This document shows positions 12,809-19,442 of a stretch of DNA of 64,000 nucleotides, piece by piece. Where the stretch lies: contig SVHM01000001.1 of assembly GCA_015055815.1 (NCBI GenBank), positions 41,774-105,773 of the forward strand, given 5' to 3'. Position 1 is the first letter of the stretch. Every line of letters starts with the position of its first letter. The notes beneath the pieces were generated by a model. It worked only from the letters and a program-made list of their open reading frames with translations. It did not search any database and was not told the origin of the DNA. The position numbers and the translations under genes are program-made. This stretch comes from Clostridiales bacterium (lineage in GTDB: Bacteria; Bacillota; Clostridia; Christensenellales; UBA1242).

Positions 12809-12856
12809 ATATAGTAAGTGTTCGCAAAAGGCATTCCCATGTTTTTCGAATAGTTT
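12809..12856 (+). repeat. Left att/dif-like site (S1)
   Basis: ATATAGTAAGTGTTCGCAAAAG (12809-12830) is identical 22/22 to 19401-19422. A second arm TTTTTCGAATAGTTT (12842-12856) matches 19428-19442 at 14/15, but follows a 12-bp spacer rather than 6 bp. Confidence 0.75.
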
Positions 12857-12956
12857 TTTTAAATTTAGTATTATTAAAACTTCTAATTTTAATTACAATA
12901 TTTCTAGAAACATGCTCCTATCCATTTTCTAAAAAAACTGTTTGAAATAACGGGGT

Positions 12957-12973
12957 CTTTTGCGTATTAGTTT
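12957..12973 (+). repeat. Extra arm-like copy inside the left end of the element
   Basis: CTTTTGCGTATTAGTTT compared with CTTTTGCGAATAGTTT at 19427-19442 (one substitution plus one inserted T). Confidence 0.5.
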
Positions 12974-13029
12974 ACAATTAAATATTTGCTCAACACTTTC
13001 TATAAATAATTTTATAGGAGTGTTTTTTA

Positions 13030-13262
13030 TGGATGAAAAACAAAAAATCAAAAAAATAAATAAATTAGAGTTAGTCGCAACTGCTCAAGAAATGGAAGAT
13101 AAGGAAACTAAAAATAAAATATCTTTCATTAAGTACGAAATAGTATTAGATGGTACAAGAATTGGTATCGGTGCTAATGATAAGTTTAAAGAACTTCTTA
13201 AATATCTAGTAGGTGCTACTGATTTAACTACTGGTCAATCTATTGTTGTAGGAGATAAGTAA
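13030..13262 (+). CDS. Phage hypothetical protein (77 aa); size and position fit an ssDNA-binding or regulatory protein, unproven
   Basis: The ATG at 13030 follows a TAGGAG ribosome-binding site. The protein is soluble, and the next ORF starts 1 nt after its stop. Confidence 0.5.
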
Positions 13263-13263
13263 T

Positions 13264-13389
13264 ATGCAGTGGTTAGGTTATATTTTATTTGCTCTAGGCG
13301 GTGCTTTCTTAGTTGTTGAAGTCATAGGTTTGACTAAAGACATTATTAATAGAAAGAAAAATAAAAAAAAGGGGGATAAAGACGAATAA
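13264..13389 (+). CDS. Small single-TM protein (41 aa), candidate minor coat protein
   Basis: MQWLGYILFALGGAFLVVEVIGL followed by a K-rich tail. Its stop overlaps the next start (TAATG). Not in the ORF track because it is under 60 aa. Confidence 0.5.
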   Translation: MQWLGYILFALGGAFLVVEVIGLTKDIINRKKNKKKGDKDE

Positions 13390-13637
13390 TGACTGGTGTT
13401 GCGTTAGTTGAAGAAATTGTATCTATTCTTATTGCTGGTATTACTAACTTTGCTGCTGGTATTGGTGAAGGTCTATCGGCTCTAGCGTCTGGAATATTCT
13501 TCAGTACTACTGGTGAAACAACTGGACTTAGTGTTCTAGGTATTTGTATCTTGGCATTTGCTGGTATTTCTCTATGTATTGGTTTATCTAGATGGGTGTT
13601 GAACTTCTTCACATCTTTAGGTGCAAGAAATCGTTAA
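13389..13637 (+). CDS. Gly/Ala-rich double-TM protein (82 aa), candidate major coat protein
   Basis: Two hydrophobic helices and a basic C-terminus (SLGARNR). A strong terminator follows immediately, as after major coat genes of filamentous phages. Confidence 0.5.
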   Translation: MTGVALVEEIVSILIAGITNFAAGIGEGLSALASGIFFSTTGETTGLSVLGICILAFAGISLCIGLSRWVLNFFTSLGARNR

Positions 13638-13640
13638 TTA

Positions 13641-13675
13641 AAAGTGGTTGGCTTCTTGCTGACCACTTTTTGTTT
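13641..13675 (+). terminator. Rho-independent terminator after the putative coat gene
   Basis: Stem aaagtggttggc / gctgaccacttt (two G-U pairs) with loop ttctt, then TTTTTGTTTT. Confidence 0.7.
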
Positions 13676-13691
13676 TATTCGTTAATTTTTT

Positions 13692-14549
13692 ATGAAAATT
13701 TTAATTATTATAATTTTAGTTTGTATTATATTATTTTTTATTCGTAAGTTTTTAAGTAAATTTAAATTCCCTAAAATAACTGCATTGTCTGTTTTTACTG
13801 GTGCTGTTAAAGTTGGTAAAACTGGTGTTTCTCTTGCTTGTACTTTATCTGTATATAGAAGAGTTCATTTTAGATGGAAAATAATTTGTTTCTTTAGAAA
13901 GTTATTTAGAAAAGAATTACCTGAAGAACCTTTGTTGTATTCAAATATTCCATTAAGAAAGGTTAAATATCATGAAATTACATTAGAACATATTCTTAGA
14001 AAAGTTAGGTTTAATTTTGGTAGTGTAGTATTTGTAGATGAAGCGTCACTACTTGCTGATTGTTACATTTCTAAAGATAAACCCGAACTATCTACTGAAT
14101 TATTAAAATTCTTTAAATTATTTGGTCATGAAACTCATTGCGGTATTTGTATTTTTAATTCTCAACAAATATCTGATTTGCATATTGCTTTAAGAAAATG
14201 TACATCTCAATACTTTTATATTCATAATACTTCTTCAAAATATTTGCCTTTTATATCTTATTGCAAGTTAAGAGAAGAAAGGTATTCAGAAGATGGGTCA
14301 ACTATTAATACTTATAATGAAGATATTGAAGATACTACTAAAACTGTTATTTTTAGAAAATCTACATTTAAAAAATACGATTGTTGTTGCTATTCTATTC
14401 TAACTGATAATCTTCCAGTTTTAAATATACCTATGTTTAATTATAAACATGATAGTTTAAAGGCTAGTAAGATTGTATCTTTTAGACCTGAATTTGCTAA
14501 TTTATTTAATGAAATTAATAAGATTAAGGAGAAAGAAAAAGATGTTTAA
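13692..14549 (+). CDS. Zot/pI-like P-loop morphogenesis ATPase with an N-terminal TM helix
   Basis: Walker A GAVKVGKTG (aa 37-45) and Walker B-like SVVFVDEASLL, with an N-terminal hydrophobic helix. It is the largest P-loop protein of the element. Confidence 0.6.
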   Translation: MKILIIIILVCIILFFIRKFLSKFKFPKITALSVFTGAVKVGKTGVSLACTLSVYRRVHFRWKIICFFRKLFRKELPEEPLLYSNIPLRKVKYHEITLEHILRKVRFNFGSVVFVDEASLLADCYISKDKPELSTELLKFFKLFGHETHCGICIFNSQQISDLHIALRKCTSQYFYIHNTSSKYLPFISYCKLREERYSEDGSTINTYNEDIEDTTKTVIFRKSTFKKYDCCCYSILTDNLPVLNIPMFNYKHDSLKASKIVSFRPEFANLFNEINKIKEKEKDV

Positions 14550-14712
14550 TAATAAAGAAAGAAAAATTTTAGATAATCATTCAAAGGCAATTTTAAAATT
14601 GGCAGACACTTTAGGTCAAGTTATAGATTGTCTTAATGAACACAATATAAAATTTGAATATAAGGAAGGTAAGTTGTTAGATGAGAAAAAGAACGATAAA
14701 GAGACTTGCTGA
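14542..14712 (+). CDS. Phage hypothetical protein (56 aa)
   Basis: The ATG at 14542 follows an AAGGAGA site and overlaps the Zot-like stop by 8 nt. Confidence 0.45.
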   Translation: MFNNKERKILDNHSKAILKLADTLGQVIDCLNEHNIKFEYKEGKLLDEKKNDKETC

Positions 14713-15031
14713 TACTATATTTTGGTATGCCTTATATTTTTTGCCAGTACTAATATTAATTTTAATGTCTTTACATAACCCTATTACTAGTTTATCTAGT
14801 GTTATTAGTACTTTAGGTTTAGATATACTTAATGATAGTGTTATTTATACTACATTAAATAGTGTTGTTGGTGCAGGGGGTATATTACCATTGTTCTCTA
14901 GTCCAGATATACTAATATTCTTTACTTATTATATTTGTGTTTATATTCTTCATTTACTTGTTGATATTGTAATCTTTATTCCTAAAATTGCTCATAAATG
15001 GTTAAATACATTTACACAAGGAGATGAATAA
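14681..15031 (+). CDS. Phage membrane protein (116 aa, ~3 TM helices)
   Basis: Hydrophobic helices, and overlaps both neighbouring ORFs. Confidence 0.55.
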   Translation: MRKRTIKRLADTIFWYALYFLPVLILILMSLHNPITSLSSVISTLGLDILNDSVIYTTLNSVVGAGGILPLFSSPDILIFFTYYICVYILHLLVDIVIFIPKIAHKWLNTFTQGDE

Positions 15032-18426: not shown

Positions 18427-18439
18427 TGTGAGGTTTGTT

Positions 18440-18700
18440 ATGTTTAAAAAATTTTATAATTCAAATTATAAAAAATATAATTTATATGGTTTTTTATTTT
18501 GTTCATTTTTGATGTTTTGTATGGTACAAGTAGGAGTATTTAGTGTTACTTCAAATAAAATAAATGCTCTTATTGGTTGTATTGATTTTTTATTATCTGT
18601 TATTTTTGCTATGCGATATGCAAAATATTTTAATAAAACATATCAATTAAAGAAAAATGCTAAAAAAGAAATAACAAAAGAAAATAAAAATAATAAGTAG
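18440..18700 (+). CDS. Phage membrane protein (86 aa)
   Basis: The ATG at 18440 follows a GAGG site. Two hydrophobic helices and a K-rich tail. Confidence 0.5.
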   Translation: MFKKFYNSNYKKYNLYGFLFCSFLMFCMVQVGVFSVTSNKINALIGCIDFLLSVIFAMRYAKYFNKTYQLKKNAKKEITKENKNNK

Positions 18701-18707
18701 GTGTATT

Positions 18708-18794
18708 ATGTGGTATATTATTATTCCGATTTTTATAGTTATATCTGCTCCAATAACTATTTATTTAGAATTAAAAAATATATATAAAGGCTAG
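18708..18794 (+). CDS. Tiny single-TM ORF (28 aa)
   Basis: MWYIIIPIFIVISAPITIYLELKNIYKG. Tightly spaced with its neighbours. Not in the ORF track. Confidence 0.35.
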   Translation: MWYIIIPIFIVISAPITIYLELKNIYKG

Positions 18795-18801
18795 GTGTTA
18801 T

Positions 18802-18963
18802 ATGAATAATGAAGAAAAAAATATGATTAATTTTTGGTTAAATAAAGTTGAAATTTGTTTAAGTCTTGTTAAAAGTTATGTTAAATATCCCAATAGTAGA
18901 CTTTCTGATGCTTTAGATATATTAACTGATACTGTTGCAGACTTTCCATTTAATTTAGAATAG
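18802..18963 (+). CDS. Phage hypothetical protein (53 aa)
   Basis: The ATG follows an AGGTG site and the stop lies inside the following terminator stem. Not in the ORF track. Confidence 0.4.
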   Translation: MNNEEKNMINFWLNKVEICLSLVKSYVKYPNSRLSDALDILTDTVADFPFNLE

Positions 18964-18990
18964 GGTAGTTTTTACTACTCTATTTTTTTT
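18960..18990 (+). terminator. Rho-independent terminator ending the + strand phage operon
   Basis: Stem atagggtag / ctactctat (one G-U pair) with loop ttttta, then T8. Confidence 0.7.
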
Positions 18991-19179
18991 GCGTTCACTC
19001 TGCTTATGCAACTGCTAAACTCTTTCGTGTTTTAATTGCTCAAAAAAGTATATACTACATCTTTGCTAATAATGGCAATAGTGGAAACCCGTTGCACGGG
19101 TGTACAAGTATTTTGTTTATTGCGAAGCACAAATATCTTAATACTAGATTGCCATTCATGTTCACTTAATACTATAAAA

Positions 19180-19273
19180 GAATTTGAAGTAAATTAGCAA
19201 ATTGGAATAAAGTATGAGAACGAAACAACTTAACTTTAATATTACTATGCTTAAACTCATAGTTAATTATATA
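19180..19273 (-). repeat. Copy B of the 94-bp perfect inverted repeat (rep fragment in the noncoding right end)
   Basis: Exact reverse complement of 17665-17758. It is flanked by hairpins ACCCGT/ACGGGT (~19088-19102) and CCCCTTA/TAAGGGG (~19291-19309). Confidence 0.9.
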
Positions 19274-19365
19274 GATTTAGATATAACCGACCCCTTAAAG
19301 AGTAAGGGGAATAAAGGGGATATGAAATTAAAATGCAACAATTTATAAATTTTTTGAATTTTTTG

Positions 19366-19394
19366 TTGACATTAAAAAATTGCTATGTTATGAT
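19366..19394 (+). promoter_or_regulatory. Near-consensus sigma-A promoter reading outward across the right att site
   Basis: TTGACA (19366-71), a 17-nt spacer, then TATGAT (19389-94). The predicted transcription start falls at the beginning of the 22-bp repeat. Confidence 0.55.
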
Positions 19395-19400
19395 ATAGAC

Positions 19401-19442
19401 ATATAGTAAGTGTTCGCAAAAGACAACTTTTGCGAATAGTTT
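19401..19442 (+). repeat. Right att/dif-like site (S2), 11-6-11 palindrome
   Basis: TGTTCGCAAAA-GACAAC-TTTTGCGAATA at 19411-19438; the inner 10 bp of each arm are perfectly palindromic. The 22-bp left part is identical to 12809-12830. Confidence 0.75.

Follow-up and report, generated by a model that had tools for sequence, protein, structure and literature searches.

An integrase-less inovirus-type prophage at a candidate XerS-like dif site in an uncultured Clostridia bacterium

How does a small phage that encodes no integrase come to lie in the chromosome of its host? This question is raised by a block of short genes in a 64,000-nt stretch of DNA (hereafter the window) from a Clostridiales bacterium (GenBank assembly GCA_015055815.1, contig SVHM01000001.1, positions 41,774 to 105,773). 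An initial annotation, made from the sequence alone, had described the block as a filamentous-phage-like element that relies on a host recombinase in the manner of CTXphi. Judged by its genes and their order, the block is an inovirus-type (Tubulavirales) prophage of an uncultured, very AT-rich Clostridia bacterium. We propose that it was integrated as an integrative mobile element that exploits Xer (IMEX) at a candidate dif site of a XerS-like recombinase, and assign this reading a probability of roughly 0.7. The phage most likely borrows the enzyme with which its host resolves chromosome dimers. Reliance on a host recombinase has emerged as the best-supported part of the original proposal, through the architecture of the site, its linkage to a xer gene, the GC skew and independent integrations at sites of the same kind.

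The integrated element spans positions 12831 to 19422 of the window (6,592 bp). Its block of co-oriented genes is bracketed by a perfect 22-bp direct repeat, ATATAGTAAGTGTTCGCAAAAG, at 12809–12830 and 19401–19422, which the initial annotation had reported correctly. When extended, the repeat is identical at 24 of 25 positions (12809–12833 versus 19401–19425); the chance expectation for such a repeat in this region is about 1.4e-4. If the circle is closed by joining 19422 to 12831, a strong promoter (19366–19394) comes first, followed by TTCGCAAAAG, a spacer of 12 nt and TTTTTCGAATAG; after some 100 nt there is another site, in inverted orientation, and then the first gene. This predicted phage attachment site (attP) contains TATGATATAGACATATAGTAAGTGTTCGCAAAAGGCATTCCCATG, and the predicted empty chromosomal site (attB) consists of the host left flank followed by TTCGCAAAAGACAACTTTTGCGAATAG. 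The reconstructed junction is colinear with two free relatives, namely L015, a contig of 5,245 nt that we take to be circular because of its 30-nt terminal overlap, and the similar L014. In both, the promoter precedes the left arm, a spacer of 10–12 nt and a degenerate right arm, and the inverted second site and first gene come after these. Since these free relatives show the same arrangement at the same place, we consider the repeats to be the true ends of an element of 6,592 bp. The previously given right end, 19442, was about right, as the site on this side ends at 19441.

The right junction (attR) carries the intact site. It reads AAGTG-TTCGCAAAA-GACAAC-TTTTGCGAA-TAGTT (19408–19441), and its arms at 19413–19421 and 19428–19436 form a perfect palindrome, TTCGCAAAA-N6-TTTTGCGAA (19413–19436). 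The outer arms are not symmetric, as the left one does not mirror the right. The consensus of the host site, (a)aCTA-TTCGCAAAA-N6-TTTTGCGAA-TAGt(t), is a near-perfect palindrome of 34 bp. The left junction (attL) is a hybrid. Here the left arm is followed by a 12-nt spacer of the phage type, GGCATTCCCATG, and then by a right arm in degenerate form, TTTTTCGAA-TAG (12842–12853). A second, inverted mimic of the site (attP2) lies further inside the element, and the same combination of a first site at the joint (attP1) and an inverted attP2 is present in L014 and L015. An attP that mimics the host site, with one intact and one hybrid site after integration, is borne out by comparison of the window with L014, L015 and L270 and by L260; the loci L270 and L260 are described below. 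Two other explanations for the att site were rejected. It is not an RNA gene, because Rfam and tRNA scans of the region came back empty, and it is not a LexA operator, as lexA is preceded by a canonical box, GAACATTTGTTT, to which the palindrome bears no resemblance.

Which enzyme could act on this site? Searches with Pfam and PHROG profiles gave no match to capsid, terminase, tail, lysis or integrase families inside 12809–19425, in agreement with the initial annotation, and no recombinase family match was found in this interval. The free relatives L014, L015 and L265 contain no integrase either. A tyrosine recombinase of 348 amino acids (aa) is encoded outside the phage, to the right of attR, and is followed by lexA, miaA, mutL and mutS. 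Its best NCBIfam match is XerS (E 2.9e-55, model positions 4–357 of 360), and no paralogue occurs elsewhere in the 64-kb window. We rejected the idea that this protein is the element's own integrase within wider borders, as the free relatives lack an integrase. Against this idea also speaks the synteny of xer-lexA-miaA-mutL-mutS with PadR/YgjP, which is kept in phage-free form in L137 and with a different phage in L260. Summed along the window, the GC skew reaches its maximum at 22,496, with +0.05 to the left of the element and −0.18 to the right of the site, a pattern that reads as the signature of a replication terminus. The site shows the marks of a dif site, i.e., palindromic arms around a short centre, a position near the skew maximum, one copy per contig and linkage to a recombinase gene. 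We infer that it is a candidate dif of a XerS-like single-recombinase system with a role in dimer resolution, and that the XerS-like enzyme would catalyze strand exchange.

The same site occurs far beyond this host. A scan of metagenomes with the pattern TTCGCAAAA-N6-TTTTRCGAA returned at least 120 contigs (L020–L139) from termite, rumen, human gut and other metagenomes, with GC contents from 29 to 66%; the locus counts given here and below are counts among the matches listed. The motif takes the form (a)aCTA-TTCGCAAAA-N6-TTTT(G/A)CGAA-TAGt(t). Its outer arms are conserved (typically aaCTA...TAGtt) and the six central bases vary freely, as in the core sites of tyrosine recombinases. Thirty-two loci that were picked by the DNA motif alone encode a homologue of the recombinase, with 42–63% identity in 30 of them and 32% in two. 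In the former 30 the site lies upstream of the recombinase gene, at a distance of 31–137 bp (14 loci), 174–429 bp (5) or 1.3–2.5 kb (11); in the two loci with 32% identity, site and estimated gene start share 29–42 bp. Each of the 32 contigs contains a single site. Among the short motif loci, only about one quarter include the recombinase gene. LexA is encoded nearby in ten motif-selected loci, and several loci encode homologues of PadR and YgjP on the other side of the site, as the window does. One of these, L137, reads PadR – YgjP – site – xer with nothing inserted and provides the analogue of an empty site in a distant relative. The genes that separate site and xer in other loci were considered as inserted cassettes; this idea was dropped, as they are housekeeping genes. 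The skew was compared across the site in the 41 metagenome loci whose flanks reach 1.5 kb or more on either side. The sign changes from plus on the left to minus on the right in 17 of them and in the opposite sense in three.

Besides the element in the window, two to three other integrase-less inoviruses sit at a site of this kind. The first is found in L260, a 294-kb NCBI contig that reads mutS-mutL-miaA-lexA-xer, then a different inovirus, then PadR. This phage encodes a Rep_OBD initiator and a helix-turn-helix (HTH) repressor, lacks an integrase, and is flanked by a 23-nt repeat, ATCTATGCGCAAAACACGGCTTT, of which the right copy is a perfect palindrome, ACATCTATGCGCAAAA-CACGGC-TTTTGCGCATAGATGT. 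The skew of this contig switches from +0.08 to +0.17 on one side to −0.13 to −0.16 on the other at the border of two bins of 2 kb, which falls at 14,000, or 0.6 kb beyond the site (13,375–13,410). The second case is L270, from a related host with a recombinase at least 90% identical and DNA 71–79% identical to the window. This contig begins 170 nt to the left of the site, and these 170 nt are the terminator and promoter of a phage like L015. Directly after TTCGCAAAAG, phage sequence gives way to the centre and right arm that the host site has in the window, which places the crossover after TTCGCAAAA(G). The third, L013 from an Oscillospiraceae metagenome-assembled genome (MAG), is an integrase-less relative with a 14-nt repeat that contains the arm, next to CTATTCGCAAAAG-GCAG-GTTTTACGAATAG. 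Other members of the clade (L010, L011, L012 and L261–L264) either encode their own tyrosine integrase of about 266 aa or are flanked by repeats of 25–55 nt with a match to tRNA 3' ends. Integration in this clade therefore follows two strategies or more, and since the integrase-bearing members sit in tRNA genes or elsewhere, absence of an integrase goes together with the dif-like site.

Two minor observations concern the same sites. The contig sizes 57,284, 250,847, 83,255 and 23,627 appear in the match lists of both the recombinase and the replication initiator, a hint of more cases. In addition, two assemblies from a related host stop at the site or slightly to its left (L271 at its position 1, L270 with its positions 1–170), and the Logan contig begins exactly with AAACTATTCGCAAAAG. 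If occupied sites coexist with empty ones, or integrated with free forms, the assembly graph would be expected to branch at the site.

These observations suggest the following life cycle. The Rep_trans-type initiator would nick the double-stranded form and start rolling-circle synthesis of a circular single strand. In the circular form, the strong promoter just upstream of the att site, which is conserved in L014, L015, L265 and L270, would drive the structural operon, with strong transcription of the genes for the 77-, 41- and 82-aa proteins up to the terminator. Read-through would supply the ATPase and the membrane proteins of 116, 336 and 162 aa. The ATPase, anchored by its N-terminal helix and without the periplasmic, secretin-contacting part of classical pI, would extrude the coated strand through a single membrane. 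In place of an integrase, the phage would use two inverted mimics of the palindromic host site in its intergenic region. The host recombinase would exchange strands at the boundary between left arm and central region, and integration would leave a hybrid attL with the phage-type spacer and an intact host site, attR. Because the element mimics dif, would be exchanged by the host recombinase and regenerates an intact site, we class it as an IMEX. Integration separates the structural operon from its promoter. The centre of attP1 (10–12 nt) and that of the host site (6 nt) are unrelated in sequence. As these centres differ, a complete two-step exchange looks unlikely. A single strand exchange that is resolved by replication would be the natural model, given what is known of CTXphi and VGJphi (PMC4246890).

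The substrate of this exchange could be a folded single strand, as for CTXphi, or the double-stranded form, as for VGJphi. For the attP regions of the window phage, L014 and L015, the predicted folds of single-stranded DNA (ssDNA) contain the same long attP1–attP2 hairpin with duplex arms and an unpaired centre (z −3.9, −5.0 and −6.6, respectively), and one compensatory change distinguishes the hairpins of L014 and L015 (TTTTTCGAA/TTTGAAAAA versus TTTTCCGA/TCGGAAAA). In contrast, L265, a circular relative with a terminal overlap of 141 nt, contains two self-palindromic sites and forms no long-range hairpin. The single-strand model is therefore not general.

Is the element indeed a filamentous phage? 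The initial annotation had called the 285-aa protein a Zot-type ATPase. This label stands by way of homology to Inoviridae Zot proteins and to a protein of bajarodino virus 71, but not by way of a direct search with the Pfam Zot profile. Sequence and model comparisons indicate that the protein is a divergent relative of pI/Zot which itself fails the Pfam family test. We base the assignment on three lines of evidence. First, Zot-annotated proteins of 13 complete circular Inoviridae genomes from faeces (4.7–8.5 kb) are 55–57% identical to it (tblastn). Second, the protein of bajarodino virus 71, a more distant family member, passes the gathering score of Pfam Zot (26.0 versus 20.3 bits) and aligns with the ATPase over its full length (BLASTP E 4e-25), including the N-terminal membrane helix, Walker A, LYSNIP, Walker B and further residues. 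Third, the AlphaFold model of the ATPase (predicted local distance difference test, pLDDT, 76) finds Inoviridae Zot proteins in a Foldseek search of BFVD (E 3e-7 and 4e-5). Eight of 38 members of the ATPase family match Pfam Zot weakly (best E 0.0025). A large protein collection contains 412 homologues, most of them on contigs of 5–7 kb.

Gene order points in the same direction. The succession 82 aa – ATPase – 116 aa – 336 aa (C-terminal half only) – 162 aa is common to the circular L001 and L002 and to the prophages L010–L013 of other Clostridia MAGs, and L015 reads Rep – 77 – 41 – 82 – ATPase – 56 – 116 – adsorption – 166. The proteins of L015 are 45–87% identical to those of the element. 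Free circular forms are evidenced in relatives by L015, L265 and GenBank records, and close relatives have been deposited as complete circular Inoviridae genomes from faecal samples. Around the constant morphogenesis module the type of initiator is exchanged, with Rep_OBD in L260 and REP_ORF2-G2P in L261–L265. The filamentous-phage identity proposed in the initial annotation is borne out by Zot homology, synteny of the module, circular relatives and the fold of the initiator. Virion formation and the roles of the small proteins are presumed from these comparisons.

The initiator had been described as a Rep_trans-type protein. As a single sequence it stays below the Pfam Rep_trans threshold (PF02486, 19.4 versus 29.6 bits), whereas the family profile and the structural model uphold the description. 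Weak Rep_trans matches occur in 15 of 43 family members, and the family profile matches the solved initiators 4CWC and 4CWE (E 2e-10; for 4CWC, E 1.9e-10 over 186 positions). The six best Foldseek matches of the AlphaFold (AF2) model (pLDDT 91.6) are entries of 4CWE, 4CWC and 4CIJ (E 1e-11 to 1e-7). The modelled protein has the Rep_trans fold of these solved members. With the pT181 family (RepD/RepDE, 4CWC and 4CWE; RepSTK1, 4CIJ) it shares this fold and the motifs around EYLG...YNK and TRLE. It differs from them in being phage-encoded, only 16–17% identical and sub-threshold in Pfam.

The features of the locus are collected in Table 1. All twelve plus-strand open reading frames (ORFs; 77, 41, 82, 285, 56, 116, 336, 162, 291, 86, 28 and 53 aa) are intact. 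The ORFs listed in the initial annotation, the Walker motifs of the 285-aa protein (GAVKVGKT and VVFVDEA) and the motifs of the 291-aa protein (VRYDIAFD, EYLGQRQNNGYVKLYNK and TRLEITL) are visible in the translations. As described, the 336-aa protein has a Gly/Tyr-rich linker and a hydrophobic anchor at its C-terminus, and a terminator follows the 82-aa gene. That description had not included the minus-strand DUF2726 gene, a 94-nt inverted repeat, the palindrome at the right repeat or the tyrosine recombinase gene. In the source annotation (MBE57573xx) the phage genes are hypothetical.

Table 1. Coordinates of the phage genes, attachment sites and host recombinase gene in the window (TM, transmembrane).
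Feature	Position	Strand	Remark
attL, hybrid site	12809–12853	+	repeat copy 12809–12833; left arm TTCGCAAAA 12821–12829
attP2, second dif-like mimic, inverted	12931–12970	−	minus-strand reading CTAATACGCAAAA-GACCCCG-TTATTTCAAACAG
77-aa protein, first gene of structural operon	13029–13262	+	60–63% identical in L014 and L015, same position
41-aa protein, one TM helix and Lys-rich tail	13264–13389	+	
82-aa protein, two hydrophobic segments	13389–13637	+	always directly upstream of ATPase gene
Intrinsic terminator, 13-bp stem and T run	13640–13670	+	directly after 82-aa gene
285-aa morphogenesis ATPase, N-terminal TM helix, then P-loop domain	13692–14549	+	
56-aa protein	14542–14712	+	conserved in L014 and L015
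116-aa polytopic membrane protein	14681–15031	+	beside ATPase in all relatives
336-aa protein, signal peptide/anchor, Gly/Tyr-rich linker, C-terminal membrane anchor	15033–16043	+	
162-aa membrane protein, last gene of morphogenesis module	16054–16542	+	C-terminal part conserved in relatives
261-aa DUF2726 membrane protein, cargo gene	16572–17357	−	own promoter 17414–17386
291-aa rolling-circle initiator, Rep_trans fold predicted	17551–18426	+	
86-aa TM protein	18440–18700	+	homologue in L014
28-aa ORF, doubtful	18708–18794	+	
53-aa protein	18802–18963	+	homologue in L014
Terminator (18957–18986) and structured non-coding region	18957–19365	+	holds inverted rep-segment copy
Strong sigma-70-type promoter, TTGACA-17-TATGAT with TG	19366–19394	+	points across att site
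attR, regenerated host site, candidate dif	19401–19441	+	repeat copy 19401–19425
Host 348-aa tyrosine recombinase, outside phage	20753–21799	+	1.3 kb right of attR

Several of these proteins may be given candidate roles. The 82-aa protein is the best candidate for the precursor of the major coat protein. It is highly conserved, with a GLSxLAxxIF motif and a C-terminal Arg-containing tail, LSRWVxNFxTSLGxRNR, and the record of Pf1 likewise has an annotated terminator after gene 8. The 41-aa protein is a candidate minor coat protein, or the alternative candidate for the major one. By position, the 77-aa protein could be an ssDNA-binding protein analogous to that of gene V. The 116-aa protein is a candidate pVI-like or assembly protein, and the 336-aa protein is a candidate adsorption protein with a pIII-like layout; the N-terminal half of the latter is variable and only residues ~190–336 are conserved among relatives. 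The 261-aa cargo protein has N-terminal TM helices and matches DUF2726 (PF10881, E 9e-12); PADLOC gave no match for it. The gene is absent from the free L015, and at the comparable position relatives carry a small HTH repressor gene. A DUF2726 fragment with 45% identity was also noticed about 0.6 kb from the dif-like site in the metagenome locus L031. Within the phage promoters, no SOS box was found.

A number of observations weigh against the reading of this locus as an inovirus integrated through a XerS-like enzyme. Some concern the site and the recombinase. The XerS score of the recombinase (187.5 bits) is below the equivalog cut-off of 267, and source annotations list it only as 'integrase' or 'XerD'. 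In the window, site and recombinase gene are not adjacent but separated by 1,315 bp with a CD-NTase-like gene between them. The skew maximum lies about 3 kb off the site, and in 21 of the 41 metagenome loci the sign stays the same across the short flanks. Furthermore, the 22-bp identity runs 10 bp past the conserved arm, which a pure Xer-type exchange would not need. Others concern the phage. A search of the ATPase against Pfam Zot (PF05707) gave no match at E ≤ 1, and neither PHROG nor NCBIfam contained a match. Its model retrieves only generic RecA/Rad51/AAA+ folds from the PDB (Foldseek), the family profile finds no match among PDB sequences, and hhalign of the ATPase with pI of M13, VGJphi, Pf1 and Dulem yields a non-significant match (E 0.016, probability 2.8%) with the motifs in the right register. 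A scan of IMG/VR with the ATPase family returned no relatives, and the element was not found there. A scan of the same database with the att pattern gave, among the matches listed, unrelated contigs only, none of which encodes a relative of any phage protein.

The remaining points concern the state of the element and lead to the most serious alternative, namely that it is a cryptic or domesticated inovirus remnant, integrated as described but fixed in the terminus region without forming virions, with the DUF2726 gene, and possibly others, perhaps kept for the host. All contigs with the exact flanking proteins carry the prophage with 100% identity, and by way of these proteins and the exact ATPase neither an empty site of the same species nor a free circle of the element was recovered; no circular copy came from IMG/VR either. 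The strain is present in the samples JGI 3300018493, JGI 3300023371 and ENA ERZ27248436. For the empty site and the circular junction (19.4 kb to 12.83 kb) that the initial annotation had suggested looking for, the analogues are the unoccupied L137 and the colinear L015, neither of which is this element itself. No repressor gene is recognisable in the element, and integration parts the strong promoter from the structural operon. Finally, the element contains an extra stretch of about 340 nt, absent from relatives, with an inverted fragment of rep. This fragment belongs to a 94-nt inverted repeat with 100% identity between 17665–17758, inside rep (codons ~39–70), and 19180–19273, in the non-coding right end. 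The borders of the repeat are sharp, and it is absent from L014, L015 and the phage end of L270. It could encode an antisense RNA that acts on rep in trans, pair over a long range within ssDNA, or be the scar of a rearrangement; the last possibility would speak for decay. A conserved cis element was rejected, as the segment is not unusually conserved. On the other hand, all twelve plus-strand ORFs are intact, with 60–88% identity to their counterparts in free circular relatives, both attP-type sites and the promoter are intact, the sampled contigs may all represent one strain, and the exact ATPase is also present on two contigs of the 5–10-kb class. On balance we consider a remnant unlikely, while giving it appreciable weight.

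A second alternative accepts the phage and reinterprets the site. In this case palindrome and recombinase would be a dedicated site-specific recombination module with no part in dimer resolution, and the phage would use the ordinary attB of a resident integrase-like enzyme. The sub-cut-off XerS score and the annotation as 'integrase' would fit such a module, and units of gene plus site are typical of mobile elements, a point that has also been made for difSL-xerS (PMC1914069). However, the pair is embedded in the housekeeping synteny mutS-mutL-miaA-lexA-xer-site-PadR/YgjP in organisms that are only 32–56% identical in these proteins, and all 32 xer-linked loci have one site per contig. A switch in the sign of the skew falls on the site or close to it in the window, L260 and 17 of the 20 informative loci, and architecture and arms resemble those of difSL (TTTCCGAAAA / TTTTCTTGAAA, PMC5357621). 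We judge a dedicated module improbable. That the block is an integrated rolling-circle plasmid or other non-viral small element, with membrane proteins in a non-virion role, is very hard to sustain: Rep_trans initiators are classically plasmid proteins, direct tests tie the ATPase weakly to Zot and the identity is drawn from the genes, but the order of basic-tailed small TM proteins, terminator, ATPase and signal-peptide protein with variable head and conserved tail follows the inovirus blueprint (compare the M13, VGJphi and Pf1 records), relatives swap Rep_trans, Rep_OBD and REP_ORF2-G2P initiators around a constant morphogenesis module, and close relatives have been deposited as complete circular Inoviridae genomes from faeces.

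If the element is an inovirus integrated at a XerS-like dif site, how does it compare with known systems? CTXphi and VGJphi of Vibrio cholerae are also integrase-less inoviruses with an attP that mimics dif, and they too leave one intact and one hybrid site; the general scheme has been described (PMC4246890, PMC5357621). Like CTXphi, the element has two inverted dif-like sites at a distance of about 100–150 nt that could fold into a hairpin in the packaged strand, as predicted here. In contrast to these phages, its host belongs to the monoderm Clostridia, the presumed enzyme is a single XerS-like recombinase instead of XerC and XerD, the arms form a near-perfect palindrome, and the attP1 spacer of 10–12 nt differs from the 6 nt of the host. 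Furthermore, the ATPase lacks the C-terminal half of Zot, and neither a toxin nor RstR/LexA-type control is present.

The XerS/difSL system of streptococci and lactococci is similar in several respects. It consists of a single recombinase of about 350 aa (356 aa, compared with 348 aa here) and a site near the terminus, and difSL sits upstream of the xerS gene (PMC5357621, PMC1914069) as the site does here, at 31–137 bp in 14 of the relatives. The arms of difSL, TTTCCGAAAA and TTTTCTTGAAA (PMC5357621), are similar to TTCGCAAAA and TTTTGCGAA. Unlike difSL, which has a central region of 11 bp, the site described here has longer, symmetric arms around a free 6-nt centre; the recombinase scores below the XerS equivalog cut-off, and its gene is often 1.3–2.5 kb away. 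The site is also occupied by phages, whereas the arrangement of difSL and xerS has been speculated to prevent such occupation (PMC1914069). The present locus bears on this old idea that difSL is shielded from hijacking by its position beside xerS. A further parallel is LME-1 with XerL/dif of Legionella (PMC9765430), where the att site of an element likewise reveals an unrecognised single-recombinase dif with long uninterrupted inverted-repeat arms. Recombinase family, host phylum and element type are different in that case: LME-1 is not an inovirus, and dif and xerL of Legionella are more than 400 kb apart (PMC9765430).

As a phage, the element is ordinary, for inovirus prophages of Clostridia are already known. 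Prophages of Enterocloster that are flanked by direct repeats have been shown to be secreted (PMC10061712), and Roux et al. predicted thousands of cryptic inoviruses in 2019 (PMC6813254). The prophages of Clostridia in these papers resemble the present one in size (6.5–8.5 kb), direct repeats, a pI homologue and 10–16 small ORFs. The passages searched characterise the att sites generically, as direct repeats, tRNA or integrase-adjacent, and mention no link to Xer or dif. The earlier remark that very few such phages have been characterised is fair, although as a claim of novelty it is overstated in view of these publications.

Integration by IMEXs is well known for hosts with XerCD and for XerL (PMC5357621, PMC9765430). 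Our literature search found no account of the palindrome or of a phage that exploits a single recombinase of the XerS type, and none of a system of this kind in Clostridia, although this absence is not proof. Judged by its site, the element is probably the first Xer-exploiting phage of a XerS-like system. More tentatively, and at slightly less than even odds, the palindrome of 34 bp upstream of the gene may belong to an undescribed XerS-like dif/Xer system that is widespread in gut Clostridia and used by Gram-positive inovirus IMEXs, possibly through a folded strand, which would make the element the first phage on a XerS-type system. The locus offers one concrete example in which a filamentous phage with a monoderm host would use that host's terminus recombination site, earlier cases having come from XerCD hosts (mainly proteobacteria) and XerL of Legionella. 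For the many uncultured gut Clostridia in which the enzyme is annotated only as 'integrase' or 'XerD', it also suggests which site may be dif and which protein may be its recombinase. If they work, the 34-bp site and the 348-aa recombinase would form a compact integration tool for gut Firmicutes.

Some observations on the surroundings may be added. The plus-strand start of the window (1–5859) lies inside a gene of 10,495–10,521 residues according to gene calls on identical contigs, with no Pfam family on record. Recombinase and lexA genes are co-oriented and adjacent in the window, and close neighbours in L260 and in ten motif-selected metagenome loci; an SOS-box-like GAACATTTGTTT occurs at 21808–21819, 60 nt upstream of lexA (21879–22502). 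Between site and recombinase gene, the minus-strand gene at 19720–20601 encodes a CD-NTase-like protein of 291 aa (PADLOC oligonucleotide cyclase, E 7e-16; NCBIfam anti-phage nucleotidyltransferase, E 3e-12). This gene is enclosed by a 25-nt inverted repeat (19428–19452 versus 20708–20732) that consists of the right arm of the dif-like site and its flank. As this repeat places a right arm there, a half-site, CTATTCGCAAAA, is found 20 nt upstream of the ribosome-binding site of xer. The same position is taken by the CD-NTase-like gene in the related host L270 and by a counterpart with 30% identity in L121.

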